Part shown: positions 3,392 to 52,144 of the stretch, in pieces
How positions within the stretch are numbered: position 1 is the stretch's first letter
How the letters are laid out: the number at the start of each line of letters is the position of its first letter
Assembly (NCBI GenBank): GCA_033763575.1
Contig: JANRKF010000013.1
Location: 17,396 to 81,395 of the forward strand
Direction: 5' to 3'
DNA: 64,000 nucleotides
DNA from: Alphaproteobacteria bacterium
GTDB lineage: Bacteria > Pseudomonadota > Alphaproteobacteria > Rickettsiales > SXRF01
Made by a program: the position numbers and the translations under genes
The notes under the pieces: generated by a model
Seen by the model: the letters and a program-made list of their open reading frames with translations, nothing else
What the model was told of the DNA's origin: nothing
Databases searched by the model: none

Positions 3392-3805
3392 ATGCATCAA
3401 GGTACATGGATAGAAAAAATAATGATAATGAAGCACGATCTGTTCACCTATGCAGCGGTGCATGCGGAGTCTGAGTACGTATCTATGATAAATGTAGCGC
3501 TTGAGAAATGTGACAAAGATTGGGAAAATACCAGACAAGCCTTATATGAAATAGCTAACACCCAACAACTCGACCTGGACGGCAATCTGCCGGATCTGGA
3601 TGAGCTGATTCCACGTTATCCTGCGTTGGAATCCCTCAAACAGATCGTCGCTCTCCATGCTCGTTTTTTTCAGCAAACACCAAGTTCTGAGGTAGTACCT
3701 CCCGATGCATCTTTTTCTCCACCCAAGCCGCTTGGCAGGTGGACGGCAGAACAACTTTTTTCTCCGGCTGACCCCGCAGCCATCGATCGTTCACGCGACA
3801 ACTAA
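3392..3805 (+). CDS. hypothetical protein (orphan ORF between psd and pssA)
   Basis: 137-aa ORF starting 1 nt after the psd stop. It is visibly AT-richer than its neighbours and has no recognisable motif. Confidence 0.4.
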   Translation: MHQGTWIEKIMIMKHDLFTYAAVHAESEYVSMINVALEKCDKDWENTRQALYEIANTQQLDLDGNLPDLDELIPRYPALESLKQIVALHARFFQQTPSSEVVPPDASFSPPKPLGRWTAEQLFSPADPAAIDRSRDN

Positions 3806-3810
3806 CCCCC

Positions 3811-10201: not shown

Positions 10202-10745
10202 TCCTTATACTCCCTGAATTGCTGAACCAACGCTTCAAAAGAAGCGGGTTTGTACTTATCAAAGCTCTCCTCATCCACATATACAAAATCATACTTTATG
10301 GTTGCAGATGATTTATTCACGTCCTCGCACCACTGCTTCAGGCGTTTGGTTTTTAGAGGCACGTCTAAATCCTCAAGCCCCTTGGTTTCCACGACATAAA
10401 TCTCAGTCGGGGATTTTTTTACCAGAAAGTCGGGATAGTAGTTTGAGATGTCGCCGTCAGCATTGATGTAGTCCAGCTTGAAATTCACGGCAAAATAGTT
10501 TTTTGCATAGGAAACTACGTCTTTGCAATCCTCTAAGAAGCTTGCAAAACGCAGTTCCAAATGGCTATCGCCAATAACTTTGTTGAAGATGCTTTTCTGT
10601 GGAACAAGATAGCCTTGCTCTTTCACGACGAATGGGCGTGTCTTGCGGAGCTTGATATAATCCCTGATTTCCGCATCGCCCTTAGCTGGTATGCGATTCG
10701 TATCGCCGGTGGTAAGCTGGATAAAATCAAGTTCATCGCCGCCTA
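10198..10745 (-). pseudogene. C-terminal fragment of a type III restriction enzyme Res subunit / helicase-associated endonuclease domain
   Basis: SHLELRFASFLEDCKDVVSYAKNYF...YYPDFLVKK...YVVETKG is the Res C-terminal endonuclease-like domain. Upstream, the reading frame is read-through of antisense hipA-like sequence, with no helicase part. Confidence 0.6.
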
Positions 10746-30563: not shown

Positions 30564-30665
30564 AATCCCCGCATTTATTGCGGGGTCCCGTCATTGCGAG
30601 CGCATGCGAAGCAATCCAGCGACCTGAAAATAGATTGCTTTGTCGCTTACGCTCCGCGCAATGAC
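30564..30665. repeat. REP hairpin (AATCCCCGCATTTATTGCGGGGTC) plus 76-bp palindromic MITE-like element (GTCATTGCGAGCG...CGCGCAATGAC)
   Basis: Hairpin at 30564-30587. The element at 30590-30665 has complementary termini. The hairpin recurs near-identically at 43021 and 45649, and inverted at 43119. Confidence 0.75.
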
Positions 30666-38319: not shown

Positions 38320-38350
38320 AAAAATGCATGTTACCCCCTTCCGTGACACA
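38320..38350 (+). promoter_or_regulatory. 31-bp element AAAAATGCATGTTACCCCCTTCCGTGACACA, copy 1 (upstream of first GTA gene)
   Basis: Near-identical copy at 41030-41060. It ends 38 nt upstream of the first head-module ORF. Confidence 0.5.
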
Positions 38351-38388: not shown

Positions 38389-38805
38389 ATGAGCAACGAC
38401 AAACAAAACAACCAACAAAATTTCGACAATATTGATTTTATCCGGTTCCTGAATCGCATCATCCTGGAGGAGGCGTTCAAGATGATCACCGAGGGGCTGC
38501 CTTGCGATAACAAGATCACGCCCGGAAACCAGCAAGACGCCCAAAAAGCAAATGATCCAAAATGGTCGGTGGAGGAGCGTGAGCGCAACGCACAGCGCAA
38601 CATCCTTATTCATCGCCATATGCGTATGTGGGGCAAAGATAAACCCGCCACCGACACGCTGGGCGACATCGCCGATACCGAGCTTAAGATCGAGAAATAC
38701 CGTCCGTCGCAGCCGGAGCGCCAGCCGAATAAGCCGCCGCCGCTCGACGAGCGCGAGCGGGAACTTTTTCGCGAGCTGCTGCGCCGGGAGGATTACGATG
38801 CGTGA
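38389..38805 (+). CDS. hypothetical protein in the small-terminase (g1) position
   Basis: GGGAGG RBS 8 nt upstream of the ATG. An 8-nt overlap links it to the terminase gene. No motif recognised, so the call rests on position only. Confidence 0.5.
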   Translation: MSNDKQNNQQNFDNIDFIRFLNRIILEEAFKMITEGLPCDNKITPGNQQDAQKANDPKWSVEERERNAQRNILIHRHMRMWGKDKPATDTLGDIADTELKIEKYRPSQPERQPNKPPPLDERERELFRELLRREDYDA

Positions 38806-40246
38806 TTTTGATGAGGAGCTCGCCGCCGCGCTCGATGAAAAAACGCGGAAACATTTCAGGCATTTTATCGGAAGAACCCTGCTCACCGCCGATCCCGACG
38901 CGCATTTCCAGAAGAACTGGCATATCGATCTGATTGCCGAGCATCTGGAGGCGGCGCGTCTGGGCAAGCTCACAAGGCTCATCATCAACATGCCGCCGCG
39001 TGCGCTCAAAAGCCAGTGCGTGAGCATTGCGTGGCCGGCGTGGATTCTGGGGCATGATCCGAGTGCGCGCATCATGGCGGCGAGCTATTCGGCGCAACTC
39101 GCCATCCGCCATTCGCTCGATTGCCGTCAGGTGGTGACGAGCGCGTGGTATCAGCGTTTGTTTCCGGATACGCGGATCGCCCGCGACCAGAATGAAAAAC
39201 ATAAATTCATGACGACGCGGCGCGGCTTTCGCTTTGCCACCAGCGTCGGCGGCACGGCCACGGGCGAGGGTGGAAATTTCCTCATCATCGACGATCCGAT
39301 GAACCCGTCCCAGGCGATGAGCGCGGCGGCGCGGGCGCAGGTCAAGCGCTGGTACGACCATACGTTTTCCACGCGCCTCAACGATAAGAAGCGTGGGGTG
39401 ATCGTGCTGGTCATGCAGCGGCTGCATATGGACGACCTCACCGCGCACCTGCTGGAGAAGGGCGGATTCACTCTATTATCGCTGCCGGCGATCGCCACCG
39501 GAACGGATTATTTTCATTTCGGTAGCGTAACGAAAAATCGCGGGGAGAAAGAGGCGCTGCACCCGGCGCGGGAGGATACGGCGCTCATCGAACGGGCGAA
39601 GATCGAGCTGGGCGCGCAGGCGTTCTCGGCGCAATACCAGCAGCAGCCCTTGCCGGAGGAGGGCGGCATGCTGAAGCGCCCGTGGCTTCGCCGTCACAAT
39701 ATTCCCTCCCCCCTTGAGGGGGAGGGCAGGGTGGGGGGTGGTGAGGAAAGGCACCATGAGCGCATCGTGCAGAGCTGGGATACGGCGATCAAGGCCGAGA
39801 ACCATCACGATGCGAGCGTGTGCCTCACCTTTGTGGAAAGCGGCAACGTCGCGCATCTCATCGATGCGCGGGTCGAGCGGCTGGAATATCCGGAGTTGAA
39901 GCGGCGCGTGCGCGAGCTGGCGGAGAAATTCAAACCACATGCGATACTGGTGGAAGACAAGGCCAGCGGCCAGCAGCTTTTGCAGGATTTGAAGCGCGAA
40001 ACCTCGCTGCCGCTGGTGGCGGTGCAAAGCAGTGCGAACAAGGTCACGCGCTTTGCGGCGGTGTCGGCGATGATTGAAGCGGGGCGGCTGTCGCTGCCGC
40101 ATAACGCGCCGTGGCTGGCGGCCTTCGAGCAGGAGATTTTAGAGTTTCCGCACGGAAAACACGACGATCAGGTCGATGCGCTGACCCAATATCTCGATTT
40201 TCTGCGGAAATCTTCGTTCGATAGATTAAGCATGCGCCGCATTTAA
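38798..40246 (+). CDS. phage terminase large subunit
   Basis: WHIDLIAEHLE...RLIINMPPRALKSQ (deviant Walker A), FLIIDDPMNP (Walker B), and a C-terminal nuclease-like half (SWDTA...DASV...VEDKASG...HDDQVDA). Confidence 0.8.
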   Translation: MRDFDEELAAALDEKTRKHFRHFIGRTLLTADPDAHFQKNWHIDLIAEHLEAARLGKLTRLIINMPPRALKSQCVSIAWPAWILGHDPSARIMAASYSAQLAIRHSLDCRQVVTSAWYQRLFPDTRIARDQNEKHKFMTTRRGFRFATSVGGTATGEGGNFLIIDDPMNPSQAMSAAARAQVKRWYDHTFSTRLNDKKRGVIVLVMQRLHMDDLTAHLLEKGGFTLLSLPAIATGTDYFHFGSVTKNRGEKEALHPAREDTALIERAKIELGAQAFSAQYQQQPLPEEGGMLKRPWLRRHNIPSPLEGEGRVGGGEERHHERIVQSWDTAIKAENHHDASVCLTFVESGNVAHLIDARVERLEYPELKRRVRELAEKFKPHAILVEDKASGQQLLQDLKRETSLPLVAVQSSANKVTRFAAVSAMIEAGRLSLPHNAPWLAAFEQEILEFPHGKHDDQVDALTQYLDFLRKSSFDRLSMRRI

Positions 40247-40413
40247 ACGGCTCAATAGATTGATTTATAATGATTCAATGGCTTAAATTCGCGCCATTTC
40301 ATGTTTACCTATTATTAAATTCGCTGTGTTATTTTACTTAATAACGGCACAATAGTTAATAAGAAACGGACCGGCCGCAACGGGGCTAACATAAGAATAA
40401 AAGGTACAGGGTT

Positions 40414-40713
40414 ATGACAACAGATAATATCAACGAATGGGTGGACAAGGCCAAGCAATCCGAGGCCGATGATTCCTCCGCATCTTCGTCGGGCGGTGTG
40501 CGCGTCGTGCGCAACCAGCCGCAACATCAAAGCATCGGCAACATGATTATGGCGGTCGCCGATAAAATCCGCCCGCATATTGCCGCCATGTGCGATGGCG
40601 TGCGCAATAATGAAGGTATGCTCATTCAGCCTGCGCATATCCGTGGTATCGCGCTCGAAATGGCAGAGGGTCTGGTGAAAGACCATCAACGTAACAGTAA
40701 AAAATCAGCATAA
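40414..40713 (+). CDS. hypothetical protein
   Basis: 99-aa ORF in the insert between terminase and portal. No motif recognised. Confidence 0.4.
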   Translation: MTTDNINEWVDKAKQSEADDSSASSSGGVRVVRNQPQHQSIGNMIMAVADKIRPHIAAMCDGVRNNEGMLIQPAHIRGIALEMAEGLVKDHQRNSKKSA

Positions 40714-40725
40714 TAGGGAACGGCC

Positions 40726-40887
40726 ATGAAAATCACTCCTGAAGACATCCAGCAAAGATTTTCGGCAACTATGGAAAACCGTGGCGTCGATCCCAATAAA
40801 TGCAACAACACTGCACACCATCTCGATGTGATTGGCAGAGACCTGAAAGGTTTTGATCTCGATAAAACGCAAGGCATGGCGCTCTAA
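40726..40887 (+). CDS. small hypothetical protein (53 aa)
   Basis: Hand-translated as MKITPEDIQQRFSATMENRGVDPNKCNNTAHHLDVIGRDLKGFDLDKTQGMAL*. It is followed by a strong terminator and is below the ORF-track length cutoff. Confidence 0.3.
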   Translation: MKITPEDIQQRFSATMENRGVDPNKCNNTAHHLDVIGRDLKGFDLDKTQGMAL

Positions 40888-40915
40888 AAAATACAAAAGT
40901 TTATTCCCAGAGGCG

Positions 40916-40947
40916 AAAAACCGGCATTCATAGGCCGGTTTTTTGTT
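40916..40947 (+). terminator. rho-independent terminator inside the head module
   Basis: AAAAACCGGC-ATTCATAG-GCCGGTTTTT stem-loop followed by a T-run. Confidence 0.7.
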
Positions 40948-41029
40948 TGCGGGTGATGCGAACGCAGCGGATTTCACGAAAAAACGCATAAATAAATATT
41001 GCAATACAATCGCTTGTCATTTTTTTCAA

Positions 41030-41060
41030 AAAAAATGCATTTCCCCCCTTCCGTGACACA
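41030..41060 (+). promoter_or_regulatory. 31-bp element AAAAAATGCATTTCCCCCCTTCCGTGACACA, copy 2 (upstream of portal)
   Basis: Matches 38320-38350 apart from about three positions. It lies downstream of the terminator and 128 nt upstream of the portal start. Confidence 0.5.
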
Positions 41061-41188
41061 TTCTTCTCGGCAAATCTATAAATGTAAGCTCGAAGAAGTG
41101 TGACGAATCACTGCCGCTTCCGACGCATCCGTTTTTTTATTTTTCCATTTCATTTTTCAATTTCCAATTTCAACCTCAGGGGGGACGC

Positions 41189-42391
41189 ATGAAACTTTTC
41201 CGCAAATCCACGACAAAAGCCGCTGCCAAAAAATCGCACCCATCTTATCTCGCGGGTAGTCTCATGCGTTCCTACATGGTGATGCCCGGCCAGCCGGTAT
41301 GGACGCCACGCGACTATTTTCAGTTTTCGCAGGAGGCCTATGCGAAGAACGTGGTGGCCTATCGTGCGATCGGCATGGTGGCGTCGGCGGCGGCGACGAT
41401 TCCCTACATCCTCTACCAGAAAAACCGCAACGGCAAGCGCGAGATCATGACGCATCCAGTGTTATCGCTGCTTTCGCGCCCGAACCCGACGCAGTCGTTC
41501 AATGATTTTCTGCAGGCGCTTTATCACTATAAAATGATTTCGGGAAATGCCTTCATACAGGCGGTGATGCCTTCCGGCGAGGCCCCGCGTGAGCTGTATC
41601 TCCTGCGGCCCGACCGCATGCAGATCATCGCCGGGAAAAATGCCATGCCTGCGGCGTATCGTTACACCGTGGATGAAAAAACCGCCGATTTTCCGGTGGA
41701 CCGCCTCACGGGCCGTTCGCGCATACTGCATCTCAAAACGTTCCATCCGACCAACGACTGGTATGGCCTCTCGCCCATCGAGGCGGCGGCCTACAGCATC
41801 GACCAGCATAACCAGGCGAGCACGTGGAACCAGTCGCTCATGCAGAATGGGGCGCGTCCTTCGGGGGCGCTGGTGGTGCGCGGGGAAAATGGCGGCGGCG
41901 TGCTTTCCGAGGAGCAATATAATCGCATGAAAATTCAGATCGACGAGCAGTTTTCCGGCAGCATCAATGCCGGGCGGCCGCTGTTGCTCGAAGGCGGGCT
42001 GGAGTGGAAAGAGATGAGCCTTTCGCCGAAAGACATGGATTTCATCGCCAGCAAAAATGCCAGTGCGCGGGATATTGCGCTGGCGTTCGGCGTGCCGCCG
42101 CAGCTGCTCGGCATTCCCGGCGACAGCACCTATAATAATTTGCAGGAGGCGCGGGTGTCGCTCTGGGAGCAGACGATATTGCCGCTTGCGGCCAGCACCG
42201 CCGAGTCGCTCAACCACTGGCTGCTGCCGCTGTTCGGCGAGGGGCTGGAGCTGGTGCCGAATACCGATGACATTTTGCCGCTCGCCATCCGCAACCAGGC
42301 GATCTGGGACCGCGTCGAAAAAGCATCCTTCCTCACCGACGATGAAAAACGCGCCGCCGTCGGCTATCCGCCCGCCAATCCTCGGGCGTGA
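41189..42391 (+). CDS. phage portal protein, HK97 family (RcGTA g3 homologue)
   Basis: 400 aa. WTPRDY..F..EAY.KN..V...I......A...P....Q..., NGKREIMTHPVLSLLSRPNP and WNQSLMQNGARPSGAL are typical of HK97-type portals. Confidence 0.9.
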   Translation: MKLFRKSTTKAAAKKSHPSYLAGSLMRSYMVMPGQPVWTPRDYFQFSQEAYAKNVVAYRAIGMVASAAATIPYILYQKNRNGKREIMTHPVLSLLSRPNPTQSFNDFLQALYHYKMISGNAFIQAVMPSGEAPRELYLLRPDRMQIIAGKNAMPAAYRYTVDEKTADFPVDRLTGRSRILHLKTFHPTNDWYGLSPIEAAAYSIDQHNQASTWNQSLMQNGARPSGALVVRGENGGGVLSEEQYNRMKIQIDEQFSGSINAGRPLLLEGGLEWKEMSLSPKDMDFIASKNASARDIALAFGVPPQLLGIPGDSTYNNLQEARVSLWEQTILPLAASTAESLNHWLLPLFGEGLELVPNTDDILPLAIRNQAIWDRVEKASFLTDDEKRAAVGYPPANPRA

Positions 42392-42482: not shown

Positions 42483-43022
42483 ATGGCCCTCAAAAACACT
42501 TCCGATTCTTTCGGCTGGCTAGCGAAGTTGTTTCACTGGCTGATTGCGGCGTGCATCATTACGCTGTGGATCGTTGGCAGCCTGATGGGCGATATGGAAA
42601 ATTCACCCACTAAATTCCAGATTTATTTCCTGCATAAATCCACCGGCATCATGGTGCTGGCGCTGGCGGTTCTGGCATTTACGTGGCGTGCGGCCAATAA
42701 AAAACCGGGTTTGCCTCCGCATGTCGGCAAAGCGCAAAAAGCGGCGGCGAGCGCGGTGAAATATGGGCTGTATCTCTGCATGATCTTGATGCCGATGAGC
42801 GGCTGGGTGATGAGCTCGGCGGCGGGATACCCCGTATCGGTATATGGGTTGTTCACGCTGCCCGATCTGGTGGCGCCCGACAAAGCGCTGGCGGAGAGCA
42901 TGAAAGAGCGTCACGAAGCGACCGGCAACATCCTCCTCGTGCTGTTCTGCCTGCATGCGGGTGCGGCCCTGCTGCACCATTTCTACCATAAGGACGGCGT
43001 CCTGAGAAGGATGTTGCCTTAA
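42483..43022 (+). CDS. cytochrome b561 family protein
   Basis: Four TM helices with conserved His ligands (KLFHWLIA, YFLHKSTG, HEATGNIL, LHHFY), the CybB-like layout. Confidence 0.8.
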   Translation: MALKNTSDSFGWLAKLFHWLIAACIITLWIVGSLMGDMENSPTKFQIYFLHKSTGIMVLALAVLAFTWRAANKKPGLPPHVGKAQKAAASAVKYGLYLCMILMPMSGWVMSSAAGYPVSVYGLFTLPDLVAPDKALAESMKERHEATGNILLVLFCLHAGAALLHHFYHKDGVLRRMLP

Positions 43023-43142
43023 TCCCCGCATTTATTGCGGGGTCCGGTCATCACCGATGTTTCGGTGAGTGGACCTTACAAAAATTCCCTACCCCCTGTT
43101 CGGAATAACCAACTACCAGACCCCGCAACAAGTGCGGGGATA
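43021..43142. repeat. REP cluster: AATCCCCGCATTTATTGCGGGGTC, a central hairpin, and the inverted copy GACCCCGCAACAAGTGCGGGGAT
   Basis: Hairpins at 43021-43044 and 43119-43142 in opposite orientation, with TCACCGA-TGTT-TCGGTGA in between. Confidence 0.75.
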
Positions 43143-43159
43143 ATCACGAGGAACTACCA

Positions 43160-43735
43160 ATGACCTACAAAAAGATTAGCGCTTCCATGCGGGAGCGCAA
43201 ACGAATGGCGTTTGCCTTACAGGTAAAATCCATGGGCGCCGACGGCCGTTTCGCGGGCTATGCCAGCGTGTTCGACATCGTTGATAACCAGAAGGATATC
43301 ATCATGAAGGGCGCGTTCGCAGGAGCGCTTAAAAACGGCCCCGGCGCGATCAAGCTGCTATGGCAACATCAGCAGGACGAGCCGATTGGCATCTTCGACC
43401 ATATTTTCGAGGACGCGTTCGGGCTGTATGTCGAGGGGCGGTTGCTGCTCGATGTGCAACAGGCGAGGGAGGCGCACGCGCTGCTCAAGGCGGGTGCGGT
43501 TTCGGGCCTCTCCATTGGCTATTCGCCGGTGCGCTACCGTATCGACGGGGATACCGGGGTACGGTATCTGGCGGCGGTCGATCTCTTTGAGATCAGCCTC
43601 GTCACCTTTCCCGCCAACGACGCCGCGAAAGTGACGGTGGTGAAGGGCACTCCCTCCCCCCTCAATGGGGGAGGAACAGAGATGATCGCCCTGCAAGACG
43701 CTCTCGACAAGGCCATCTTGACGTTGCGTTTTTAA
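43160..43735 (+). CDS. HK97-family prohead protease (RcGTA g4 homologue)
   Basis: FAGYASVFDIVDNQKDIIMKGAF...LLWQHQQDEPIG...GLSIGY...EISLVTFPAN. GAGGAA RBS. Confidence 0.9.
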   Translation: MTYKKISASMRERKRMAFALQVKSMGADGRFAGYASVFDIVDNQKDIIMKGAFAGALKNGPGAIKLLWQHQQDEPIGIFDHIFEDAFGLYVEGRLLLDVQQAREAHALLKAGAVSGLSIGYSPVRYRIDGDTGVRYLAAVDLFEISLVTFPANDAAKVTVVKGTPSPLNGGGTEMIALQDALDKAILTLRF

Positions 43736-43780
43736 TAGGTTATAATAGGTCTTATTGAATTATAATAGGATCTATTAACT

Positions 43781-44002
43781 ATGGAAACGTTATCCTTTCA
43801 GGCACCGGCGGCGATGAAGAAAAAGCTGGAGCGTTTTGCCGGCCAGCTTGATCGCAGCAAGGGCTACCTTATCCGCGAGGCGCTCGCCGACTACCTGGAA
43901 GATCTGGAGGATTATGTAGCGGTCATGCGCGACCGGAAATCGCATGATCCGAAGCGGAATCTTTCGCTTGCGGCGGTCAAACGCAAATACAAGCTTAAAT
44001 AA
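43781..44002 (+). CDS. ribbon-helix-helix antitoxin (RelB/ParD/CopG-like)
   Basis: LSFQAPAAMKKKLERFAGQLDRSKGYLIREALADYLEDLED is an RHH fold signature. It shares 1 nt with the toxin start (TAATG). Confidence 0.75.
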   Translation: METLSFQAPAAMKKKLERFAGQLDRSKGYLIREALADYLEDLEDYVAVMRDRKSHDPKRNLSLAAVKRKYKLK

Positions 44003-44265
44003 TGGCGTGGCAGGTTGAGTTTACGGCAAAGGCGGACAAGCAGTTCGCCAAGCTCGACCGGCACACGCAGCAAGCCATCGTGAAGTATCTTGAACGCGTC
44101 ATCGAGAGTGACGACCCCACATTATTCGGTAAAGCGCTGGTCGGTGAATTTTCCGGCCTGTGGCGTTACCGCGTGGGCAAATACCGCATCATCTGCGACC
44201 TTCAGCAACAACGGCTGATTGTCGAGGTGGTACGCATCGGTAAACGCAACAGCGTTTACGATTAA
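44002..44265 (+). CDS. relE: RelE/StbE-family mRNA interferase toxin
   Basis: WQVEFTAKADKQFAKLD...LWRYRVGKYRIICDLQQQRLIVEVVRIGKR is typical of RelE/ParE-superfamily toxins. Confidence 0.85.
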   Translation: MAWQVEFTAKADKQFAKLDRHTQQAIVKYLERVIESDDPTLFGKALVGEFSGLWRYRVGKYRIICDLQQQRLIVEVVRIGKRNSVYD

Positions 44266-44448
44266 CCAAACCACCAACCAACTTTTTTTTACCAACTCAT
44301 TCCCGATTAGTGCCAAGCAGTACTAGGAAGGCAAGGCGAGGTGGAGGGAGCGTACATGAGAGTACGTGACCGATACCGAGTCCGCCGCCTGACGACGTAA
44401 TGCGACGGCAATAGGAGGGAATTTTATCAACCAACAAAGGAATGAAAT

Positions 44449-45645
44449 ATGACTATTTCTGAAATCACTGAACGCGTCTCGCACCTGGGACATGCATGGG
44501 AAGAATTCAAGCATGTGAACGATGCGCGCCTGCGTGAGATCGAGACCAAAGGCTCTGCCGACGGCCTCTATAACGAGCACCTGAACAATATCAGCCGTGC
44601 GCTCGACAACTACAAATCGCGTCTCGACACCATCGAGACGGCCTATGCGCGTCCGGAACTGGGCGCCGAGCTGGAAACCAAACATACCCATGCCGGGTAT
44701 AGCGAATACAGCAAGGCCTTCCGCAATTACCTGCGTAAAGGCATGGATGCGGGTTTAGAGCAGCTTTCGACCAAGACACTTTCGGTCGGTTCCGATCCCG
44801 ATGGCGGTTACCTGGTGACGCCGACCATGAGCGGCAAGATCGTGAAATCGGTGTATGAAACTTCGCCGATGCGCCAGGTCGCTTCGGTGGAAACCATCAC
44901 CTCCGATTCGCTGGAACTGATCGACGACCACGACCAGGCCTCGGCGGGGTGGACTTCGGAAACCGGCGCCATTTCGGAAACCAATACGCCGCAAATCGCC
45001 AAGCGCAACATCCCGACCCATGAACTTTATGCACAGCCGAAGGCGACGCAGAAGCTGGTAGACGATGCCGCGATCGATATCGAAGCATGGCTTGCCGATA
45101 AAATTTCCGACATCTTCGCCCGCAAGGAAAATACGTCCTTCATCAGCGGCAACGGTTCGGGCCAGCCACGCGGTATCCTCACCTACGCGGCGGGCACCGA
45201 CTGGAACCAGATCGAGCAGATCGATTCCGGCACCAGCGGATCGGTCACTGCCGACGGCCTCATCAAAGTATTTTATGCGCTGAAAGATGCCTATACCCGC
45301 AACGCCAGCTTCATGATGAACCGGGCGACCGTGCAGGCGGTGCGTCTCCTGAAAGAGGCGACCACCAACCAATATCTGTGGCAGCCGGGCCTTGCGGCCG
45401 GTGCGCCGGATACCCTCATGGGGGTACCGGTGATGATGGCGTCCGACATGCCGACGGCGGCGGCGGATTCGCTTTCGGTCGCGGTGGGTGATTTCAAGGC
45501 GGCGTACCAGATTGTTGATCGCCGTGGCATCAGCATCCTGCGCGATCCGTTCACAGAAAAACCGTTCGTGAAATTCTACGCCACCAAGCGCGTCGGCGGC
45601 GATGTCATCAATTTTGAAGCCATCAAGCTGTTGAAGCTTGCTTAA
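44449..45645 (+). CDS. HK97-family major capsid protein (RcGTA g5 homologue)
   Basis: N-terminal delta-like coiled region, then GSDPDGGYLV, SGNGSGQPRGIL, QYLWQPGL..G.PDTLMGVPV and GISILRDPFT. Confidence 0.92.
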   Translation: MTISEITERVSHLGHAWEEFKHVNDARLREIETKGSADGLYNEHLNNISRALDNYKSRLDTIETAYARPELGAELETKHTHAGYSEYSKAFRNYLRKGMDAGLEQLSTKTLSVGSDPDGGYLVTPTMSGKIVKSVYETSPMRQVASVETITSDSLELIDDHDQASAGWTSETGAISETNTPQIAKRNIPTHELYAQPKATQKLVDDAAIDIEAWLADKISDIFARKENTSFISGNGSGQPRGILTYAAGTDWNQIEQIDSGTSGSVTADGLIKVFYALKDAYTRNASFMMNRATVQAVRLLKEATTNQYLWQPGLAAGAPDTLMGVPVMMASDMPTAAADSLSVAVGDFKAAYQIVDRRGISILRDPFTEKPFVKFYATKRVGGDVINFEAIKLLKLA

Positions 45646-45648
45646 CCT

Positions 45649-45714
45649 AATCCCCGCACTTGTTGCGGGGTCTGGTACTTAAAAAACACCGGACCCCGCC
45701 ATTCGGCGGGGATT
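45649..45714. repeat. two REP hairpins after the capsid gene
   Basis: AATCCCCGCACTTGTTGCGGGGTC (45649-45672) and GGACCCCGCCATTCGGCGGGGATT (45691-45714). Confidence 0.75.
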
Positions 45715-45734
45715 ATCATTTCGGAGAAAATTTT

Positions 45735-46148
45735 ATGAGAGACCTTTACCGCAATATACTGGTGACGCAGCATCTTGACCCTGCGACCGCCACCACCACC
45801 AGAACCTCCACCACCGTCGACCTTCAGGGCTATGACAGCGCGAATCTTCTGTTTGCCGTCGGGCAGTCGGGCGATACCTTGTCCGGCTCGGTGTACTGGA
45901 CGCTGAAACTCACCCACAGCGACGACGATTCGAGCTATTCGGATGTCACGCTCGCCGAACTCAACAACACGGCGGCGACCGTGGTGATCGATTCCGGCAG
46001 TGAGGACGGCACGGTTTACGGCTTCGGCTATAATGGGGCGAAACGTTACCTGCGCGCCGTGGCCACCCCGACCGGCACCCATAGCAACGGCACCCCGCTC
46101 GCGATCATCGCCCTGCGCGGCACGCCTGCCTATGCCCCGGTGAATTAG
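45735..46148 (+). CDS. phage-associated hypothetical protein downstream of capsid
   Basis: 137 aa (VDLQGYDSANLLFAVGQSGDTLSGSVYWTLKLTHSDDDSSYSDV). It resembles small proteins I recall after HK97-type capsid genes, and it is not part of the RcGTA core set. Confidence 0.55.
   Translation: MRDLYRNILVTQHLDPATATTTRTSTTVDLQGYDSANLLFAVGQSGDTLSGSVYWTLKLTHSDDDSSYSDVTLAELNNTAATVVIDSGSEDGTVYGFGYNGAKRYLRAVATPTGTHSNGTPLAIIALRGTPAYAPVN
46113..46148 (+). repeat. 36-bp direct repeat, left copy (CTGCGCGGCACGCCTGCCTATGCCCCGGTGAATTAG)
   Basis: This is the 3' end, including the stop, of the 45735 gene. It is 35/36 identical to 48101-48136. Confidence 0.9.
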
Positions 46149-46272
46149 TTTACATCCCCGGCAAGCCGAAGGCGCGACCGGGGATCTTGTGGTCGCCACA
46201 CATCGTAGCTTCTACAGGATCCCCGCCTTCGCGGGGATAAACTAGGAATATGACATTCTTCCCATACATGCT

Positions 46273-47046
46273 ATGACATGTCTTATGTCGACCAAAACAA
46301 ATATTGAATGGACGGAAATGACGTGGAATCCGACAACGGGTTGCACGAAAATTTCACCTGGATGTAAATATTGTTATGCGGAAGTAATGGCGAACAGGCT
46401 GCAGGCGATGGGCGCTGCGGGATACGAACAAGGCTTTAAACTACAACTCCATCCCGATCGCCTGAAACAGCCGCTTGCGCGTAAAAAATCGACCACCTAT
46501 TTTGTCAATTCCATGAGCGATTTATTTCATGAAGAGATTCCGTTTGCTTATCTCGATCAGGTATTTGCCATCATTCGTCAAACGCCACAGCATACGTATC
46601 AAATTCTGACAAAACGCCCGGAACACATGGAAAATTATTTTAAAACGCGCATGGTGCCTGTCAACGCATGGCTTGGTGTGTCAGTAGAAGACAGAAAATA
46701 TGGGCTTCCCCGTATTGACATTTTACGACGTATCAATGCCTCCACACGCTTTCTTTCTATTGAACCGTTGCTGGAAGATCTTGGAGAATTTAATCTTCAA
46801 GGCATTCAATGGGTGATTGTTGGCGGAGAATCGGGTGCAAAAGCGCGTCCGATGCAAGAAGCATGGATAGGGCATATTGCCAACCAATGTTCTAAAAATG
46901 GCGCTGCCTTTTTCTTCAAACAATGGGGCGCGTGGGGTGCGGATGGAGTTAAGCGCTCCAAATCCGCTAATGGCCGTGAATTTCAAGGAAGAATCTGGGC
47001 TGCGACTCCTTCAGATACGCAAATGGATCTGGCGCTAAAATATTAA
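46273..47046 (+). CDS. DUF5131 / phage Gp37-Gp68 family three-Cys-motif protein
   Basis: IEWTEMTWNPTTGCTKISPGCKYCYAE...YFVNSMSDLFHE...LTKRPE...SIEPLL...WVIVGGESG is the PF07505 pattern as I recall it. The start may be 46285. Confidence 0.75.
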   Translation: MTCLMSTKTNIEWTEMTWNPTTGCTKISPGCKYCYAEVMANRLQAMGAAGYEQGFKLQLHPDRLKQPLARKKSTTYFVNSMSDLFHEEIPFAYLDQVFAIIRQTPQHTYQILTKRPEHMENYFKTRMVPVNAWLGVSVEDRKYGLPRIDILRRINASTRFLSIEPLLEDLGEFNLQGIQWVIVGGESGAKARPMQEAWIGHIANQCSKNGAAFFFKQWGAWGADGVKRSKSANGREFQGRIWAATPSDTQMDLALKY

Positions 47047-47099
47047 TCTTAACAATTTTTTAGTTATTAGAAAATCGAGAAAGGGACAGGAATGATGCC

Positions 47100-48092
47100 G
47101 TGCCGCACCATTTTTATGACTGGTCTAATCCACGCAAACCACCGCTTTTACAACTCCATAGCATTGCAAAGCACGAGGTAATAAAAACATATCTTGAACA
47201 CCATATTGAACGGTTGACCGCCCATTCTCGAATGGCACGCCTTAGGCTTACTATCGTTGATGGATTTGCTGGTGGCGGCATATATCGCCATGCGGAAACA
47301 GATAAATTATGTGCCGGTTCTCCTTTTATTTTTCTTGAGACCGTCCATCGAATGGAAAGAAAGATACGCAAAAAACGCACCAAAAAATTTTGCATTGATG
47401 CAGCGTATTATTTTATTGATAGAGACAATGATGCTCTATCTTTTTTACGCTCGCAATTGCATAAAAAAGGATACGGCGACCTGATTGGTGAACGCGTTTT
47501 CTTACTGCACGGATCTTTTTCCAATCTTTTCGCAGGACTAATGGAAATTGTTCGCTCACGCGGTGGGCGCGCATTCTTTTTATTGGATCAATATGGTTAT
47601 AAGGATATACCTTTGTCGCTTATTAAACAAATATTCACCCGCCATCCAAGCGCTGAGGTGTTGTTTACATTTGCGGCAGATGCGCTGGTCAATTATATGG
47701 CTCATCGCAAGCAATATTACAAATGCGTACACAACATTGATCCCAGCGGTCGTTTATTGCCTCGTGAAGACATAGTAAAACTAAATAGACTTAAAAACCG
47801 TTCGGCATATAAAACAAAAATAACCGAATGGCGTTTAATGACTAAACATAAGTTACTGTGTCGCCTTATTCGGCTTTGTGGTGTGCGCTATTGCGTTCCA
47901 TATTTTATCGTTTCCCCAAAAAGCAATCGTGCATATTGGTTTTTACATTTTTCAAATCATTTGAAATCTCGAAATCAAATGCTCAAGTTGTGTGGTCGCA
48001 ACCACAATGTTGTAGTGCGACATAAAATGTCTGGATTCAATATGTTTGGATATGCCCCTCGTAAACACTCAGCCACAGAAATCGATTATTAG
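47100..48092 (+). CDS. three-Cys-motif partner protein TcmP-like
   Basis: GTG start. LLQLHSIAKHEVIKTYLEHHI...IVDGFAGGGIY fits my recollection of TIGR04474, which is defined by adjacency to PF07505 genes. Confidence 0.6.
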   Translation: MPHHFYDWSNPRKPPLLQLHSIAKHEVIKTYLEHHIERLTAHSRMARLRLTIVDGFAGGGIYRHAETDKLCAGSPFIFLETVHRMERKIRKKRTKKFCIDAAYYFIDRDNDALSFLRSQLHKKGYGDLIGERVFLLHGSFSNLFAGLMEIVRSRGGRAFFLLDQYGYKDIPLSLIKQIFTRHPSAEVLFTFAADALVNYMAHRKQYYKCVHNIDPSGRLLPREDIVKLNRLKNRSAYKTKITEWRLMTKHKLLCRLIRLCGVRYCVPYFIVSPKSNRAYWFLHFSNHLKSRNQMLKLCGRNHNVVVRHKMSGFNMFGYAPRKHSATEIDY

Positions 48093-48100
48093 AAAACGGG

Positions 48101-48136
48101 CTGCGCGGCACGCCTGCCTATGCCCCGGTGAACTAG
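48101..48136 (+). repeat. 36-bp direct repeat, right copy (CTGCGCGGCACGCCTGCCTATGCCCCGGTGAACTAG)
   Basis: Begins 8 nt after the TcmP-like stop. It has one mismatch to the left copy. Confidence 0.9.
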
Positions 48137-48382
48137 CAACAGAAAGTGGAATTGGGGAGTTGGGGAAATGAGGAATTGGGGAAATTCTCCAGTTCTTCAA
48201 TTCTTCAGTTCGCCAATTCCCCTCCCTTCTCTATGGCAAAAAAGCCACACCCGCCCCCAAAAACGCGGGCCATATTCTCACTTTTTCTCGTATTATTTCC
48301 TTCTTTAATGGTTTTTTAAGTCACTTGACCTAATGTCAGGTGATAGGTTAAACTATTGAGACTACGGGAGAGTGAGGAATTT

Positions 48383-48751
48383 GTGGGTAAGCTGACGACA
48401 TCTGAGCAGATCATTGCAGAAAAAACGGTGTGCATTCTTCTGATTCGTGGTGAAAGCCCCGATGGCGGGAAGATGTATGCCTATGTCGCTGTTCGCGCCG
48501 ACAAGCTCGAAGGCTTCATGGAAGCGCAGAAATCCGGCACGTTCTTCCCGGAAGATTACGGGATGATACTGGAGGCGGGCGAAGGCGAGCCGTCGGACGA
48601 AGTCAAAACCAAGATGACGCAGGAATATGGCTTCAATCATGATTCGATGATGGATATCGAAGGCTCCAAAGGCGCCCATGATATCGCCAGCAATATTTCC
48701 GGCATCGTTCAGGCCGCGTCGAAAAACAAAAAAGACGGCGACGCCGAATAA
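48383..48751 (+). CDS. hypothetical acidic protein
   Basis: GTG start with a GAGGAA RBS (48374-48379). A possible promoter has TTGACC (48325-48330), an 18-nt spacer and TAAACT. No motif recognised. Confidence 0.45.
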   Translation: MGKLTTSEQIIAEKTVCILLIRGESPDGGKMYAYVAVRADKLEGFMEAQKSGTFFPEDYGMILEAGEGEPSDEVKTKMTQEYGFNHDSMMDIEGSKGAHDIASNISGIVQAASKNKKDGDAE

Positions 48752-48781
48752 TTCTCCATCCTCATTACACCCAATCATTTA

Positions 48782-48882
48782 TAGAGTGCTTCCGCTTTAG
48801 TCTTGTGCTAGGCAGCCGAGACCGAAACCTTTAGCCCCGGCGAAGGCCGGGGAACGCACAAGGCTAAATGGGAAGCGCTCTA
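48782..48882. repeat. 101-bp palindromic element between convergent genes
   Basis: 27-nt arms at 48782-48808 and 48856-48882, complementary with about 5 mismatches. An inner CCCCGG-CGAAGG-CCGGGG hairpin is present. The element overlaps the stop of the 48880 gene. Confidence 0.65.
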
Positions 48883-49752
48883 ATGGGCGACGGCTTTTGC
48901 TGCGGCGGGATCGTGGATAATCCCCAGGCCTTTGGCGATCTTGAGCATACCCTCGGTCATGCCGCCCAATTCCCCGGGGGCGGCTTTTTTCCCGGTGAAT
49001 TCGAAATGATGTTCCGGCGTTCCAAACAAACTCTTTTGCCCTTTATCTATGAGCACGCCCTTGCTCTCCGCCTTGTATAGCCCCGCCATCATACCCGCGG
49101 TGGGTATCAACGTAAGGTAGTTGGGGAGGATATAGGCAATGGCGAAACGGGAATCCTGCTCGGCCTTCTCTTCGCTCCATCCGGCGGCCTTCATGATGTT
49201 CTTGGTGGTATCCTTGATACTTCCGGTCACCGGCTGCATGGCGCTGGTGCCGAGGAACCATGCCGTGCCCAGATGCACGGGCAGATCGAGGCGCGTCCAC
49301 ATCCTGCCGGGAAGTTCCTTGGTGCCCGTGGCGCGGCTTAAGCCTTTTTCCGCCAGCACCAGGCTGCCCCAACCGACCGCAAGCGCCGCCGAGTAGTGAT
49401 ATCCGCTGTTAAGCAAACCATCGAGCCTCTGCTCCTCTGTCTGGTGATGCCGGAGTTCGCGCCCTTCCTCGCCCTCGATACTGCCGGCGAGATTATCGAT
49501 TGCCCATTCGATCGGCTTTTGCAGCATCTTGACCGGGGTATACATCGCGGTCTTGAACGCGGATTTCAGGAAGGGGAACGCTTTGTCGAAAGGCTCCTGG
49601 TAGCGCAGGAAAATGATCTCCGTCGCGTTACCCACCATATCGGCAATGAGCATCTGGGACGACTTGGTCCAGCTCTTTTTAACCCAGTTATTGTTACTGC
49701 CGTCACTCATTGCAGACACACTTCTCCTATTTATACCTTCTAAGTATAGCAA
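48880..49752 (-). CDS. hypothetical membrane-associated protein
   Basis: 290-aa ORF (an alternative start at 49710 gives MSDGSNNNW) with hydrophobic helices. It lies on the strand opposite the GTA genes. Confidence 0.5.
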   Translation of the reverse strand: MLYLEGINRRSVSAMSDGSNNNWVKKSWTKSSQMLIADMVGNATEIIFLRYQEPFDKAFPFLKSAFKTAMYTPVKMLQKPIEWAIDNLAGSIEGEEGRELRHHQTEEQRLDGLLNSGYHYSAALAVGWGSLVLAEKGLSRATGTKELPGRMWTRLDLPVHLGTAWFLGTSAMQPVTGSIKDTTKNIMKAAGWSEEKAEQDSRFAIAYILPNYLTLIPTAGMMAGLYKAESKGVLIDKGQKSLFGTPEHHFEFTGKKAAPGELGGMTEGMLKIAKGLGIIHDPAAAKAVAH

Positions 49753-49820
49753 ATTTTACATCCAGAAATGTGACAATTCTGTGAAATCACCAACCCATAC
49801 AACCGAAAATAAGGAGTTTT

Positions 49821-50366
49821 ATGACCCATTTCCGCCATCGCGGGCTGGTGCGGGTGACGCCCCCCACCGCCGAGCCGCTAACCCTTCAGGAAACAAAGGA
49901 ATTCTTGCGGATTCCGCATAATGACGACGATTCCCGCATCAACGATATGATCGTCACCGCCCGTTCGCTGGCCGAGCAATGGCTCAGGCGGTCACTCATC
50001 ACCCAGGGCTGGAAGGTATCTTTCGAGGACGCCATTACCGGCACGATCCGCCTGCCGATGGGTCCGGTCCAGTCCATCACTTCGGTGGTGACGACGACCG
50101 TGGACGGGGTTCCGCTCACCATCCCCACCACCGCCTACCTGCTCTCGGTGACACAGGATGCGATCGTGGTGGACAACATCATCAGCGGCCATCGCATCGA
50201 CATCACCTATGTCGCAGGGTACGGCTCCGGCAGCCAGCTTCCGAAACCGATCAAGCTCGGCATGCTGCAACATATCGCCGCCATGCTCGACAGCGAAATG
50301 ACGCTGGCGCCGATTCCCGACAGCGTGCTGCCGTTTTACACGCCGTTTCGGGAGCTGGCCCTATGA
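49821..50366 (+). CDS. head-tail connector protein, gp6-like (RcGTA g6 homologue)
   Basis: EPLTLQETKEFLRIPHNDDDSRINDMIVTARSLAEQWLRRSLITQGW is the family signature. Confidence 0.85.
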   Translation: MTHFRHRGLVRVTPPTAEPLTLQETKEFLRIPHNDDDSRINDMIVTARSLAEQWLRRSLITQGWKVSFEDAITGTIRLPMGPVQSITSVVTTTVDGVPLTIPTTAYLLSVTQDAIVVDNIISGHRIDITYVAGYGSGSQLPKPIKLGMLQHIAAMLDSEMTLAPIPDSVLPFYTPFRELAL

Positions 50367-50692
50367 AAATGTTCAATGCCAGTCTGCGCCACAAGGTGTT
50401 CCTTGAGCGCAAAATCCAAACCACAGATGGGGCGGGGGGGTATACGGACGCATGGGAAACGATAGCGACATTATGGGCGGGAATCAGCCGCCTGCGCGGC
50501 GGCGAGAAATTTTCCGCCGGGCAACTCTCCGCCAGTTCCACTCATGTGTTCCGCCTGCGTTACAACCACAACATTACCACCGACATGCGTTTTTCCTATG
50601 ACGAGCGGCTGTTCAATATCCGTGCGCTTCGCAATGTCGATGAGAGGAAACGGATACTCGATGTTTACGCCGAGGAGGGCGTGGCCATATAA
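50363..50692 (+). CDS. head-tail adaptor / head closure protein, SPP1 gp16-like (RcGTA g7 homologue)
   Basis: LRHKVFLERKIQTTDGAGGYTDAWETIATLWAGI...THVFRLRY. ATGA overlap with g6. Confidence 0.85.
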   Translation: MKMFNASLRHKVFLERKIQTTDGAGGYTDAWETIATLWAGISRLRGGEKFSAGQLSASSTHVFRLRYNHNITTDMRFSYDERLFNIRALRNVDERKRILDVYAEEGVAI

Positions 50693-51120
50693 TTGACGCC
50701 CATCGCAGGCAAGCGGCCAGGCGACAGGTTGAGCGCCGTCATCAGCAGATGCACATGGGCGCGGAATTTGGCGTGCCACTCGCGTTCGGTGCGGATGCCG
50801 ATGGTACTGCAGATTTCGTCGAGGAAATACACCGAGCTATCCATGGAGAAAACCTGCAGCGCCTCGCCGAGTAATTCCTTGTCGGGTTTCGCGGCTTCCT
50901 TGGAAAGCAGGAAAGTGCCATGCACCAGGTCGTGAACCGCTTTCTGCCACGGTTTATAGCCCTCGGCATACGGGTCGCCGGCTTCTTCGATCACATGGTC
51001 CAGATGCTGCTCGATGCGTATCAGCGTGACCTGATACACCTCGACAAAGGTCTGCGCCATGCGCGTGGCCTGCAACGCGTTTTCATCGCCGTTTCCGGCT
51101 ATGCCATCAACCGTTTCCAT
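50665..51120 (-). CDS. hypothetical protein (antisense to the GTA operon)
   Basis: 151-aa ORF. Its 3' end overlaps the g7 3' end by 28 nt. No motif recognised. Confidence 0.4.
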   Translation of the reverse strand: METVDGIAGNGDENALQATRMAQTFVEVYQVTLIRIEQHLDHVIEEAGDPYAEGYKPWQKAVHDLVHGTFLLSKEAAKPDKELLGEALQVFSMDSSVYFLDEICSTIGIRTEREWHAKFRAHVHLLMTALNLSPGRLPAMGVNYMATPSSA

Positions 51121-51153
51121 GCAAACACCTTAACATTTTATTGTGACAGTTTT

Positions 51154-51558
51154 ATGACATATTTCAGCCAATTTTCACTTCAGCAAAGTTTATACCAGCA
51201 GCTCACCGGGGATACGACCCTGATGGCACTGGTTTCGGGGATTTTCGACCATGTGCCGCAAGGCACGGCCTATCCCTTTGTAACCATAGGAGAAGCCGCC
51301 ATCCGCGATTTTTCCAATGCCGAAAAACAGGGCACCGAGCAGCAGGTCACCCTGCGTATTTACAGCCGCGAGGCGGGCCGCAAGCAGGCTTCCGCCATCA
51401 TGGAGCGCATCGTCACGCTGCTTAATAGCGCTGACCTCACGGTGAGCGGGCAAACGCTGCGCTCGCTGCGTTTTTTATCCAGCAATATCGTGTTGCAGGA
51501 TGACGGGCTGACCTATCGCGGCACCCTTATTTTCCGGGCGCTCCTGAACGAGGCCTGA
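51154..51558 (+). CDS. DUF3168 tail-completion protein (RcGTA g8 homologue)
   Basis: LQQSLYQQLTGDTTLMALVSGIFDHVPQGTAYPFVTIGE...VTLRIYSR is typical of DUF3168. Confidence 0.8.
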   Translation: MTYFSQFSLQQSLYQQLTGDTTLMALVSGIFDHVPQGTAYPFVTIGEAAIRDFSNAEKQGTEQQVTLRIYSREAGRKQASAIMERIVTLLNSADLTVSGQTLRSLRFLSSNIVLQDDGLTYRGTLIFRALLNEA

Positions 51559-51559
51559 A

Positions 51560-52144
51560 TTAACGAGGTAGAAATTCCCCGGCGATGCCGTCGATGAAGG
51601 TCTGGTAGCGGGTTTGCAGCGGGTCGATGATGGCGGCGTCGCAGGTGCCGCTAGCATATAATTCCTTATACGAGCCCTGCGCCGAAGTCAGAATATCGTA
51701 TTGCAACCGGCCGGGCGCGTTCACCGAGGCCATTTCCTGCGCCAGCGCCGAGATGATGATATGGTAATCGGCGGGTTGTATTTTCGCGCATTGCCGCAGC
51801 ACGAAATAGGTCACAAGAATATCTTCGTAACGTTTTTTGAGCGTGTCGATAGCGGCCTGGGTATCGCCTTGCCCTTGAGGCGCGGGGTCGAGCACCGATT
51901 GCAGCTCGCTTTGCGGCCCGACGGGCGGCAGGGCGGGCGGGGGATCGCACTCGATTTTTTCGGCGGTTTTCGCCTTCAGCGTATCGCGTTCATTGGCCAG
52001 CATGGCATTTTCAGCCTGCAGGGCGGTGATCCGGCCTGCAAGCTCGTGGTTTTGCTCTTTGGTGCGCAGCATGCTGAAAAGCGCGCCGATGATGATCGCC
52101 GCCACGCATACCGCCACCAGCCCGTTCAGCTTTTTGCCCAGCAT
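51560..52144 (-). CDS. hypothetical membrane-anchored coiled-coil protein
   Basis: N-terminal TM helix (LVAVCVAAIIIGALF), then a heptad-like segment (ELAGRITALQAENAMLANERDTLKAK). It is antisense to the GTA operon. Confidence 0.45.
   Translation of the reverse strand: MLGKKLNGLVAVCVAAIIIGALFSMLRTKEQNHELAGRITALQAENAMLANERDTLKAKTAEKIECDPPPALPPVGPQSELQSVLDPAPQGQGDTQAAIDTLKKRYEDILVTYFVLRQCAKIQPADYHIIISALAQEMASVNAPGRLQYDILTSAQGSYKELYASGTCDAAIIDPLQTRYQTFIDGIAGEFLPR

Follow-up and report, generated by a model that had tools for sequence, protein, structure and literature searches.

How does a pair of genes come to lie within a cluster of head genes, bracketed by two copies of its upstream neighbour's 3' end? 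The question is raised by a 64,000-nt stretch of DNA from an alphaproteobacterium of the Rickettsiales (GenBank assembly GCA_033763575.1, contig JANRKF010000013.1; the whole stretch is here called the window). In it, a DUF5131 gene (Gp37/Gp68 family) and a TcmP gene stand between two genes, p137 and p131, of a head-gene cluster resembling that of a gene transfer agent (GTA). An earlier note, made from the DNA alone, had picked out this two-gene cassette. We found that it is a foreign insertion with a target duplication and that its relatives occupy a second slot in clusters of the same kind; below we argue that it is probably a selfish unit resembling a restriction-modification (R-M) system.

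The insertion between p137 and p131

Direct repeats, CTGCGCGGCACGCCTGCCTATGCCCCGGTGAA(T/C)TAG, stand on either side of the cassette; the two copies are 36 nt long, agree at 35/36 positions and start 1988 nt apart (coordinates are collected in Table 1). Copy 1 forms the true end of p137, and copy 2 starts 8 nt past the TcmP stop codon (48090-48092). Exactly two copies of the 36-mer were present in the 64 kb, against a chance expectation of none, and this copy number rules out a dispersed repeat within the window. The 1,952 nt between the copies consist of the DUF5131 and TcmP genes and a hairpin element of 97 nt. GC content inside the insert was 0.39-0.46 versus 0.55-0.63 in the flanks, and GC at third codon positions (GC3) was 0.35-0.41 in the cassette genes versus 0.71-0.75 in the protease and capsid genes of the cluster. 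No recombinase was detected inside the insert, where no open reading frame (ORF) of at least 50 amino acids (aa) lay outside the span of the two genes (short overlapping ORFs in other frames were left out of the family scans). No tyrosine or serine recombinase gene was found between the repeats, nor any integrase in or adjoining the insert.

Relatives were collected by a capsid scan of one genome per GTDB species, which yielded 80 loci, nearly all from uncultured "Rickettsiales" or other alphaproteobacterial metagenome-assembled genomes (MAGs); the closest capsid among them was 87% identical. In about 36 related loci holding both genes, p131 started 150-320 nt after p137, and we therefore regard the empty site as the norm. 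Besides the window, only L006 and L027 departed from it. The DNA that follows copy 2 (48137-48355) aligned with the p137-p131 intergenic regions of L002, L003 and L004, and both repeat copies aligned with the single p137 3' end of the same relatives; thus the insert consists of one repeat copy plus 1,952 nt. A promoter-like site (TTGACC-N18-TAAACT, 48325-48354) just upstream of p131 was conserved in this alignment. We concluded that 46149-48136 is a foreign two-gene insertion with a 36-nt target duplication. The earlier note's account of the repeat, of the AT-rich interior and of the lack of a recombinase among the intervening ORFs was borne out, as was its expectation of a single repeat copy in relatives; the repeat is not dispersed in the window, and the relatives lack the pair at this slot.

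The left junction was replicated by an independent assembly: Logan contig L001 (run DRR729080; 1445 nt) matched 45526-46970 exactly. An exact-protein look-up of p137 returned one 1.4-kb contig, identical to the window, and so no empty site at strain level. Two other occupants of the slot were seen in relatives. L006 carried two small ORFs (97 and 96 aa; 3633-4220) that by appearance look like a HigB/HigA-type toxin-antitoxin pair, no family search having been made, and L027 carried a 222-aa ORF (10070-10738).

The 97-nt element next to copy 1 had a predicted RNA fold of -52.8 kcal/mol (z = -5.2). Its sequence was single-copy in the window and absent from the L002-L004 intergenic regions, and it looks like either a separate secondary insertion of the miniature inverted-repeat transposable element (MITE) or repetitive extragenic palindromic (REP) type, or a terminator insulating the cassette. 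Without it, the cassette's leader (GACATTCTTCC..ATGCTATGAC) would begin a few bases after the p137 stop. This leader resembles the left end of the cassettes described next (GACATTTTCC..GCTATGCTAT) and may serve as a promoter; a sigma-70 consensus scan of 46240-46284 returned no site.

Recurrence at the protease-capsid slot

A DUF5131 gene followed by a short TcmP gene was also found between the protease and capsid genes of L007, L008 (= L090), L009 and L148/L162, representing at least four other species. Compared with the window, the proteins shared 70% aa identity (DUF5131) and about 50% (TcmP). Every one of these cassettes was bracketed by a direct repeat of the upstream protease 3' end, 76-97 nt long (76 nt and 95% identity in L007, 97 nt and 85% in L008, 83 nt and 88% in L009, 83 nt and 84% in L162), with a start-to-start spacing of 1,838-1,884 nt. 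The left boundary of the repeat was sharp (AAAT[C/A/T]AC…). Copy 2 began in the last TcmP codons and was continuous with native sequence, first the protease end, then the intergenic region, then the capsid gene. The protease 3' end was single-copy in the uninserted L010, L013, L015 and L025, and the cassettes lay 10-16 GC points below their flanks.

Translation of copy 2 as a protease C-terminal peptide was considered for L007-L009 and rejected; in L007 the protease frame is closed by a TAA directly before copy 2 and offers no start codon. In L007 and L008 the last ~7 codons of the functional protease (ending GALRL-stop) are unlike both copy 2 (…VLHQ-stop) and the uninserted orthologues (…VLQV-stop). 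In these two species the cassette may have brought a replacement gene end with it.

The cassette of L162 (1472-2312; = L148), on a contig labelled viral by IMG/VR, had its TcmP gene split into two ORFs beside an intact DUF5131 gene, and its copy 2 was the most diverged (83-84% identity). This TcmP gene appears to be decaying.

Selection, exchange and repeat homogenization

Synonymous (dS) and nonsynonymous (dN) divergence were calculated by the Nei-Gojobori method. Between L007 and L009, cassette dS (0.75-0.95) was about equal to flank dS (0.78-1.03), and dN/dS was 0.12-0.13 for both cassette genes, indicating long residence under purifying selection. The same ratios indicate that TcmP is functional in the short form carried by these cassettes, which lacks a winged helix-turn-helix (wHTH) domain (see below). 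Between L007 and L008, by comparison, cassette dS was only 0.005-0.04 versus a flank dS of 0.28-0.36. Because cassette divergence fell so far below that of the flanks, we concluded that the cassette was recently exchanged between these species.

Repeat copies were 83-96% identical within a genome, while positional counterparts across clades were 72-78% identical. A neutral copy should have diverged far more at a dS of about 1, and the copies must therefore have been homogenized (gene conversion) or re-created (excision and re-entry), or else copy 2 has been under selection.

The repeats belong to the cassette lineage

Flanking repeats might be a general trait of DUF5131-TcmP pairs, and the earlier note had proposed a survey of other pairs' flanks for them. 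Such repeats were not found. No convincing bracketing repeat was seen in about 60 metagenomic loci with full-length pairs, where the nearest approaches were weak AT-rich intergenic matches in L159 (40 nt, 85%), L160 (53 nt, 77%) and L130 (25 nt, 84%), and the pairs of L082, L084 and L086 had no flanking repeats; together these loci rule out the general trait. Of 51 IMG/VR loci with DUF5131, 49 lacked TcmP, one was the GTA-like contig again and one (L167) had the pair; apart from the GTA-like contig, none showed flanking repeats. The pair had been described beforehand as widespread in phages and islands. For phages this held for DUF5131 only, which there mostly stood alone; the pair is found mostly in cellular contexts resembling defence islands.

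Other inserts in these clusters were also without duplicated gene ends, namely cytochrome b561, the ribbon-helix-helix (RHH)/ParE pair, the L006 pair, the L027 ORF and the inserts of the protease-capsid slot. The repeats are thus a property of the DUF5131/short-TcmP cassette lineage, and not of the locus or of the family at large.

The two cassette proteins

Both gene identities given in the earlier note were confirmed. The DUF5131 protein matched PF07505 over its full length (354.1 bits, cut-off 28.9; profile 1-243 of 243), and its partner matched TIGR04474 (175.9 bits, cut-off 53). The two genes are 53 nt apart, and about 60 other loci have them in the same order. Membership of TIGR04471 (radical SAM mobile pair protein A, SAM being S-adenosylmethionine) was rejected (94 bits versus a cut-off of 355). 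No sequence-level PDB relatives were found for DUF5131, TcmP or p137.

In DUF5131, the three cysteines C20, C27 and C30 (CX6CX2C) were invariant in 31 homologues, and the motif G180-G181-E182 (GGE) was invariant among homologues. The structural model had a mean predicted local distance difference test score (pLDDT) of 79, and its best PDB matches were spore photoproduct lyase entries (probability 1.0, template modelling (TM) score ~0.5, Foldseek E ~1e-3). As regards the hallmarks of radical SAM enzymes, the Cys triad and GGE are present, the cysteine spacing is non-canonical and the fold match is moderate. The match agrees with the placement of DUF5131 by RadicalSAM.org in megacluster 5-2, adjoining spore photoproduct lyase (PMC9477430). 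DUF5131 is therefore predicted to be a radical-SAM-type enzyme whose nearest fold is that of the DNA-repair enzyme spore photoproduct lyase.

The TcmP model (pLDDT 84, predicted TM score 0.85) best matched RlmJ in the PDB (E 7e-8, TM 0.41-0.54). Motif I reads DGFAGGG, strand β2 ends in an acidic residue, and a variant motif IV (LDQYGY) stands where amino-methyltransferases have (D/N)PP(Y/F). From this model we predict a class-I SAM-methyltransferase fold, its closest counterpart being RlmJ, which methylates adenine in nucleic acid. The check for radical-SAM-like folds proposed earlier thus yielded folds resembling spore photoproduct lyase and RlmJ.

The assignment of the partner as TcmP-like held at the level of the family but needs qualification, because this is a shortened form. 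A typical TcmP has 415-445 aa, the last part being a GMT-like wHTH domain (PF22560). No Pfam match was obtained with the window TcmP; it ends ~13 residues past the motif MFGY, where homologues run on for ~95 aa. All of the short forms (330 aa in the window, 318-329 aa at the protease slot) stop ~4-13 residues after MFG[FY] and lack the wHTH. The shortening may have been shared or independent: by pairwise identity the window TcmP was nearer the full-length P0002 and P0003 (62%) than the short form of L007 (50%). A neighbour-joining tree united the short forms, the window grouping with L007-L009 in only 51/200 bootstraps, and this grouping may reflect long-branch or compositional attraction.

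Defence candidacy and genomic neighbours

The suggestion that the pair is a phage-defence candidate, to be looked up in PADLOC, led to two listed systems. DUF5131 matched the B component of both (PDC-M30B, 370 bits; PDC-M41B, 361 bits). TcmP matched the A component more weakly (PDC-M30A, 64 bits; two M41A models, 24 and 22 bits), the A profile being covered only over 10-262 of 372. PDC-M30 and PDC-M41 are "guilt-by-embedding" candidates without experimental validation, and PADLOC finds the pair in 32/100 Pseudomonas aeruginosa strains (PMC10855318). Literature searches on DUF5131, TcmP and the pair returned no functional study. In Sinorhizobium meliloti, the TcmP gene SMa2243 lies, by locus-tag number, near the Hna defence gene SMa2245, and the two are listed side by side among the genes upregulated in a nolR+ strain (PMC12445080).

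Full-length pairs had as neighbours DUF488, AlkB-like 2-oxoglutarate-Fe(II) dioxygenases, HNH proteins, type I R-M systems and HipA. In L164 (6001-11115), a DUF5131 gene encoding a protein 78% identical to that of the window was followed not by TcmP but by a ParB_N plus N6/N4 DNA methyltransferase. The surroundings included two AlkB-like genes and DUF488, in a defence island with AbiEii, GIY-YIG, PIF1/WYL and SNF2.

The surrounding head-gene cluster

The best PDB match of the window's capsid protein was Rcc01687, the capsid of the Rhodobacter capsulatus GTA (RcGTA; E 1.6e-81), and the gene order terminase, portal, protease, capsid, connector, head completion, tail completion is that of RcGTA. 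The cluster is, judged from its genes alone, an RcGTA-like head module. The p137 protein matches phrog_5707 and has no Pfam match; about 40 of the 80 loci had a homologue of it directly 3' of the capsid, and the order protease, capsid, p137, p131, variable stretch, connector was kept in dozens of species. This conservation indicates that the cluster is vertically inherited and GTA-like, and not a recent prophage. Phage relatives of the region were sought by megablast of 43000-52000 against GenBank phages, with no matches; in a Pfam scan of six ORFs downstream of the connector, five of the six had no match.

Table 1. Features of the cassette and of the head-gene cluster around it (positions in the window; R-P, RHH antitoxin and ParE toxin).
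Feature	Position	Strand	Remarks
Large terminase	38552-40246		
Portal	41189-42391		
Cytochrome b561	42483-43022		between portal and protease; right edge has two REP-like hairpin copies
S78 prohead protease	43160-43735		
R-P pair	43781-44265		between protease and capsid
HK97-type capsid	44449-45645		
p137 (target gene)	45735-46148	+	137-aa ORF ending in repeat copy 1, stop included
Repeat copy 1	46113-46148	+	last 11 codons and stop of p137; functional gene end
Cassette	46149-48136		
Hairpin element	46149-46245	+	97 nt, palindromic, GC-rich, MITE- or REP-like; TAG on either side; between p137 stop and cassette
Cassette left end (5' leader)	46240-46284	+	putative promoter
DUF5131 (Gp37/Gp68 family)	46285-47046	+	ORF opens at 46273; homologues start at ATG 46285
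Short TcmP	47100-48092	+	330 aa; class-I SAM-methyltransferase-like core without C-terminal wHTH (predicted)
Repeat copy 2	48101-48136	+	displaced non-coding copy of p137 3' end; continuous with ancestral intergenic DNA
p137-p131 ancestral intergenic region	48137-48355	+	aligns with L002, L003 and L004
p131	48356-48751	+	conserved gene directly after p137 in relatives
290-aa ORF	48880-49752	reverse	
gp6-like connector	49821-50366		
Head completion	50363-50692		
Tail completion gp17	within 50920-51558		

Depending on the species, the protease-capsid slot measured between 8 bp and 5.6 kb, and it held many different genes. A homologue of the RHH/ParE pair (64% and 74% aa identity) lay upstream of the L002 capsid gene; no gene-end duplication was found flanking the RHH/ParE pair. 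A paralogue of p131 of ~90 aa (…IFLVRG.D..G..AWYYVMVD.GKR…) was found on the reverse strand in the protease-capsid slot of L022, L024, L026-L028, L030, L064 and L073, usually accompanied by an ORF of ~200 aa. The gap between terminase and portal (40247-41188) is AT-richer (GC 0.41-0.49); it holds a 124-aa reverse-strand ORF (40315-40689) and may be another accessory insert.

Two short sequence families were also noted. The hairpin GACCCCGCAAYAARTGCGGGGAT occurred four times in the window (30565-30587, 43022-43044, 43119-43141 and 45650-45672), and an identical 21-mer of it in the protease-capsid intergenic region of L008/L090 (L008 9939-9959), a much AT-richer species with 78% capsid identity; it may represent a clade-wide REP or terminator family. 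The sequence TGCATnTnnCCCCCTTCCGTGACAC stood upstream of both the terminase and the portal genes (38323-38350 and 41033-41060), and the same 15-mer, CCCCTTCCGTGACAC, recurred in L082 (7031-7045), an unrelated contig, ~75 nt before its DUF5131-TcmP pair. This may be a shared promoter or operator.

Comparison with known systems

The architecture most resembles insertion with long target duplication, a recombinase-free process described for type I-IV R-M systems, with direct duplications of more than 30 bp, some of them reaching into a gene's 3' end (Furuta et al. 2010, PMC2853133); an earlier description is credited there to Nobusato et al. 2000 (ref. 37 in PMC2853133). The cassettes share with those insertions a small defence-type unit of deviant GC without transposase or integrase, and repeats longer than 30 bp that vary in length, overlap a gene 3' end and are single-copy in uninserted genomes. 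The insert in the window, at 1,952 nt and without mobility genes, is well within the 20-kb limit used by Furuta et al. Their further criterion, homologues of both R and M genes in the cargo, is where the cassette differs: no restriction-nuclease homologue was found in it, and TcmP is only methyltransferase-like. The cassette is thus not a recognisable R-M system but encodes a non-canonical methyltransferase-like protein. It also differs in lying in a GTA-like structural cluster, in the occurrence of one cassette type at two slots and in the concerted evolution of its repeats during a long residence.

Ordinary DUF5131-TcmP pairs (PDC-M30/M41) are like the window pair in the hidden Markov models they pass, in gene order and adjacency, and in the three-Cys motif. 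They differ in having a TcmP of ~420 aa instead of 330 aa, with the PF22560 wHTH, and in lying in defence islands instead of a head-gene operon; target duplications flank only cassettes of the window type. Relative to spore photoproduct lyase and RlmJ, which have the nearest solved folds, the window proteins retain the Cys triad and GGE on the one side and motif I on the other. However, DUF5131 has the spacing CX6CX2C in place of CX3CX2C, and TcmP has DQYGY in place of the DPPY of RlmJ (a 23S rRNA m6A2030 methyltransferase). With no detectable sequence similarity and TM scores of ~0.4-0.5, they are not members of those families. Phage morons and accessory cassettes are similar in being small autonomous units of deviant composition between head genes, and neighbouring slots here likewise hold toxin-antitoxin and accessory genes. 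Classical morons are not known to have duplicated ends of their upstream neighbour on both sides.

How the cassette may have entered

We consider it fairly probable that the cassette is a selfish, R-M-like modification unit that entered the p137-p131 slot by insertion with long target duplication, without a recombinase. The cassette would have been acquired horizontally, and the last 36 nt of p137, stop included, would have become the flanking direct repeats. DUF5131 and TcmP together would install or process a covalent modification of nucleic acid, most probably of DNA, and the unit would behave like a selfish gene pair of the R-M or defence-island type. Its role may be defence or the protective marking of GTA or phage DNA. 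After insertion, gene conversion or recurrent cycles of excision and re-entry could keep the repeats alike, and the cassette could pass between related clusters through homologous recombination. Possible routes to the duplication are staggered breaks with fill-in, template switching during replication, or Campbell-type entry of a circle carrying a copy of the gene end.

Several observations weigh against this account. The p137-slot insertion is known from one genome and one 1.4-kb Logan contig only, so that its age and right junction are without an independent replicate. Cassettes that have been resident for a dS of about 1 keep their AT-richness, which is consequently no proof of recent arrival. 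The protease end of L007 and L008 fits an element-borne replacement (Campbell-type entry) better than simple self-duplication. As for the chemistry, the searched literature held no biochemical or phage-challenge data on the pair, and the fold matches are moderate (TM ~0.4-0.5; Foldseek E ~1e-3 for DUF5131). The substrate could also be RNA, as it is for RlmJ, and the argument for DNA is weaker for the window copy because its short TcmP lacks the wHTH, which in full-length members would speak for DNA binding.

The strongest of the other explanations is Campbell-type integration, in which a circle bearing the cassette and a gene-end copy recombines at the chromosomal gene end, by RecA on 36-97 nt of homology or by a recombinase encoded elsewhere. 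The gene would be regenerated, its native end would become copy 2, and excision would use the same repeats. This would account for the L007/L008 protease end, which looks cassette-borne in being unlike copy 2 and the uninserted form, and it accords with the recent exchange between L007 and L008, with repeats that remain homogenized and with the confinement of repeat-flanked cassettes to homologous GTA-like clusters. Yet no integrase was found in or adjoining the insert, no circular junction was observed, and within L009, as within L162, both copies share the variants particular to that genome. Moreover, with two target genes and unequal repeat lengths, pre-existing homology does not explain the first entries. 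We therefore regard Campbell-type entry as a possible but doubtful explanation of the whole, even though it fits the L007/L008 gene ends best. Classical site-specific integration, one of the routes suggested at first, is not supported either: an integrase is lacking, the repeats differ in length (36 versus 76-97 nt) and the target is not the same gene at the two slots. It would be more daring to suppose that the pair is an autonomous recombinase-free element whose own radical-SAM/methyltransferase DNA chemistry makes a lesion or staggered break whose repair leaves a long target duplication at the 3' end of a GTA head gene, and/or that it has been repeatedly recruited to mark packaged DNA, thereby protecting transferred DNA from restriction in recipients; we think this unlikely.

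The duplications might instead come from the locus, if slots in GTA-like clusters were hot spots where any insert gains a duplicated gene end, through cluster-specific recombination or selection on regulatory signals. The varied contents of the protease-capsid slot, the toxin-antitoxin-like pair and the 222-aa ORF at the p137-p131 slot of L006 and L027, and the cytochrome b561 and RHH/ParE inserts of the window cluster accord with such hot spots. But none of these other inserts has a duplicated upstream 3' end, the DUF5131/short-TcmP cassettes alone being flanked (5/5 genomes), and p131 has its own promoter-like site 3' of copy 2, so that its expression has no obvious need of the 36 nt. This makes a property of the locus very unlikely. 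Finally, the cassette could be old and lost elsewhere by recombination between its repeats, as direct repeats permit a precise deletion that leaves an apparently empty site, or it could be a chimeric join made at the shared 36-mer during metagenome assembly, the window probably being metagenome-assembled and its closest relatives all being MAGs. Against these readings stand the ~36 species without the cassette at the p137 slot and the window alone with it, the cassette GC3, ~0.35 below that of neighbouring genes, the identical left junction in the independent Logan assembly and the same architecture in five independent assemblies at the protease-capsid slot. We find either hardly credible, and hold to insertion with long target duplication as the probable origin.

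What the cassette means for its gene families

The gene families, their status as defence candidates and the insertion signature were already known. What is new is their combination: a wHTH-less DUF5131-TcmP lineage in GTA-like head clusters, with long target duplications at two slots, homogenized repeats and recent exchange between species. DUF5131 (>8,000 clusters at E below 1e-10) and TcmP form a very common yet uncharacterised family pair. The predicted folds, the L164 locus (where a bona fide DNA methyltransferase stands in for TcmP) and the neighbouring AlkB-like and DUF488 genes together point to a predicted new nucleic-acid modification, carried out by a radical-SAM enzyme and a methyltransferase-like partner. 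The repeat-flanked copies provide a natural experiment, in which a core pair that lacks the wHTH is still maintained by purifying selection. With them, insertion with long target duplication, until now associated with R-M systems, would extend to another class of defence-island genes and to GTA loci.

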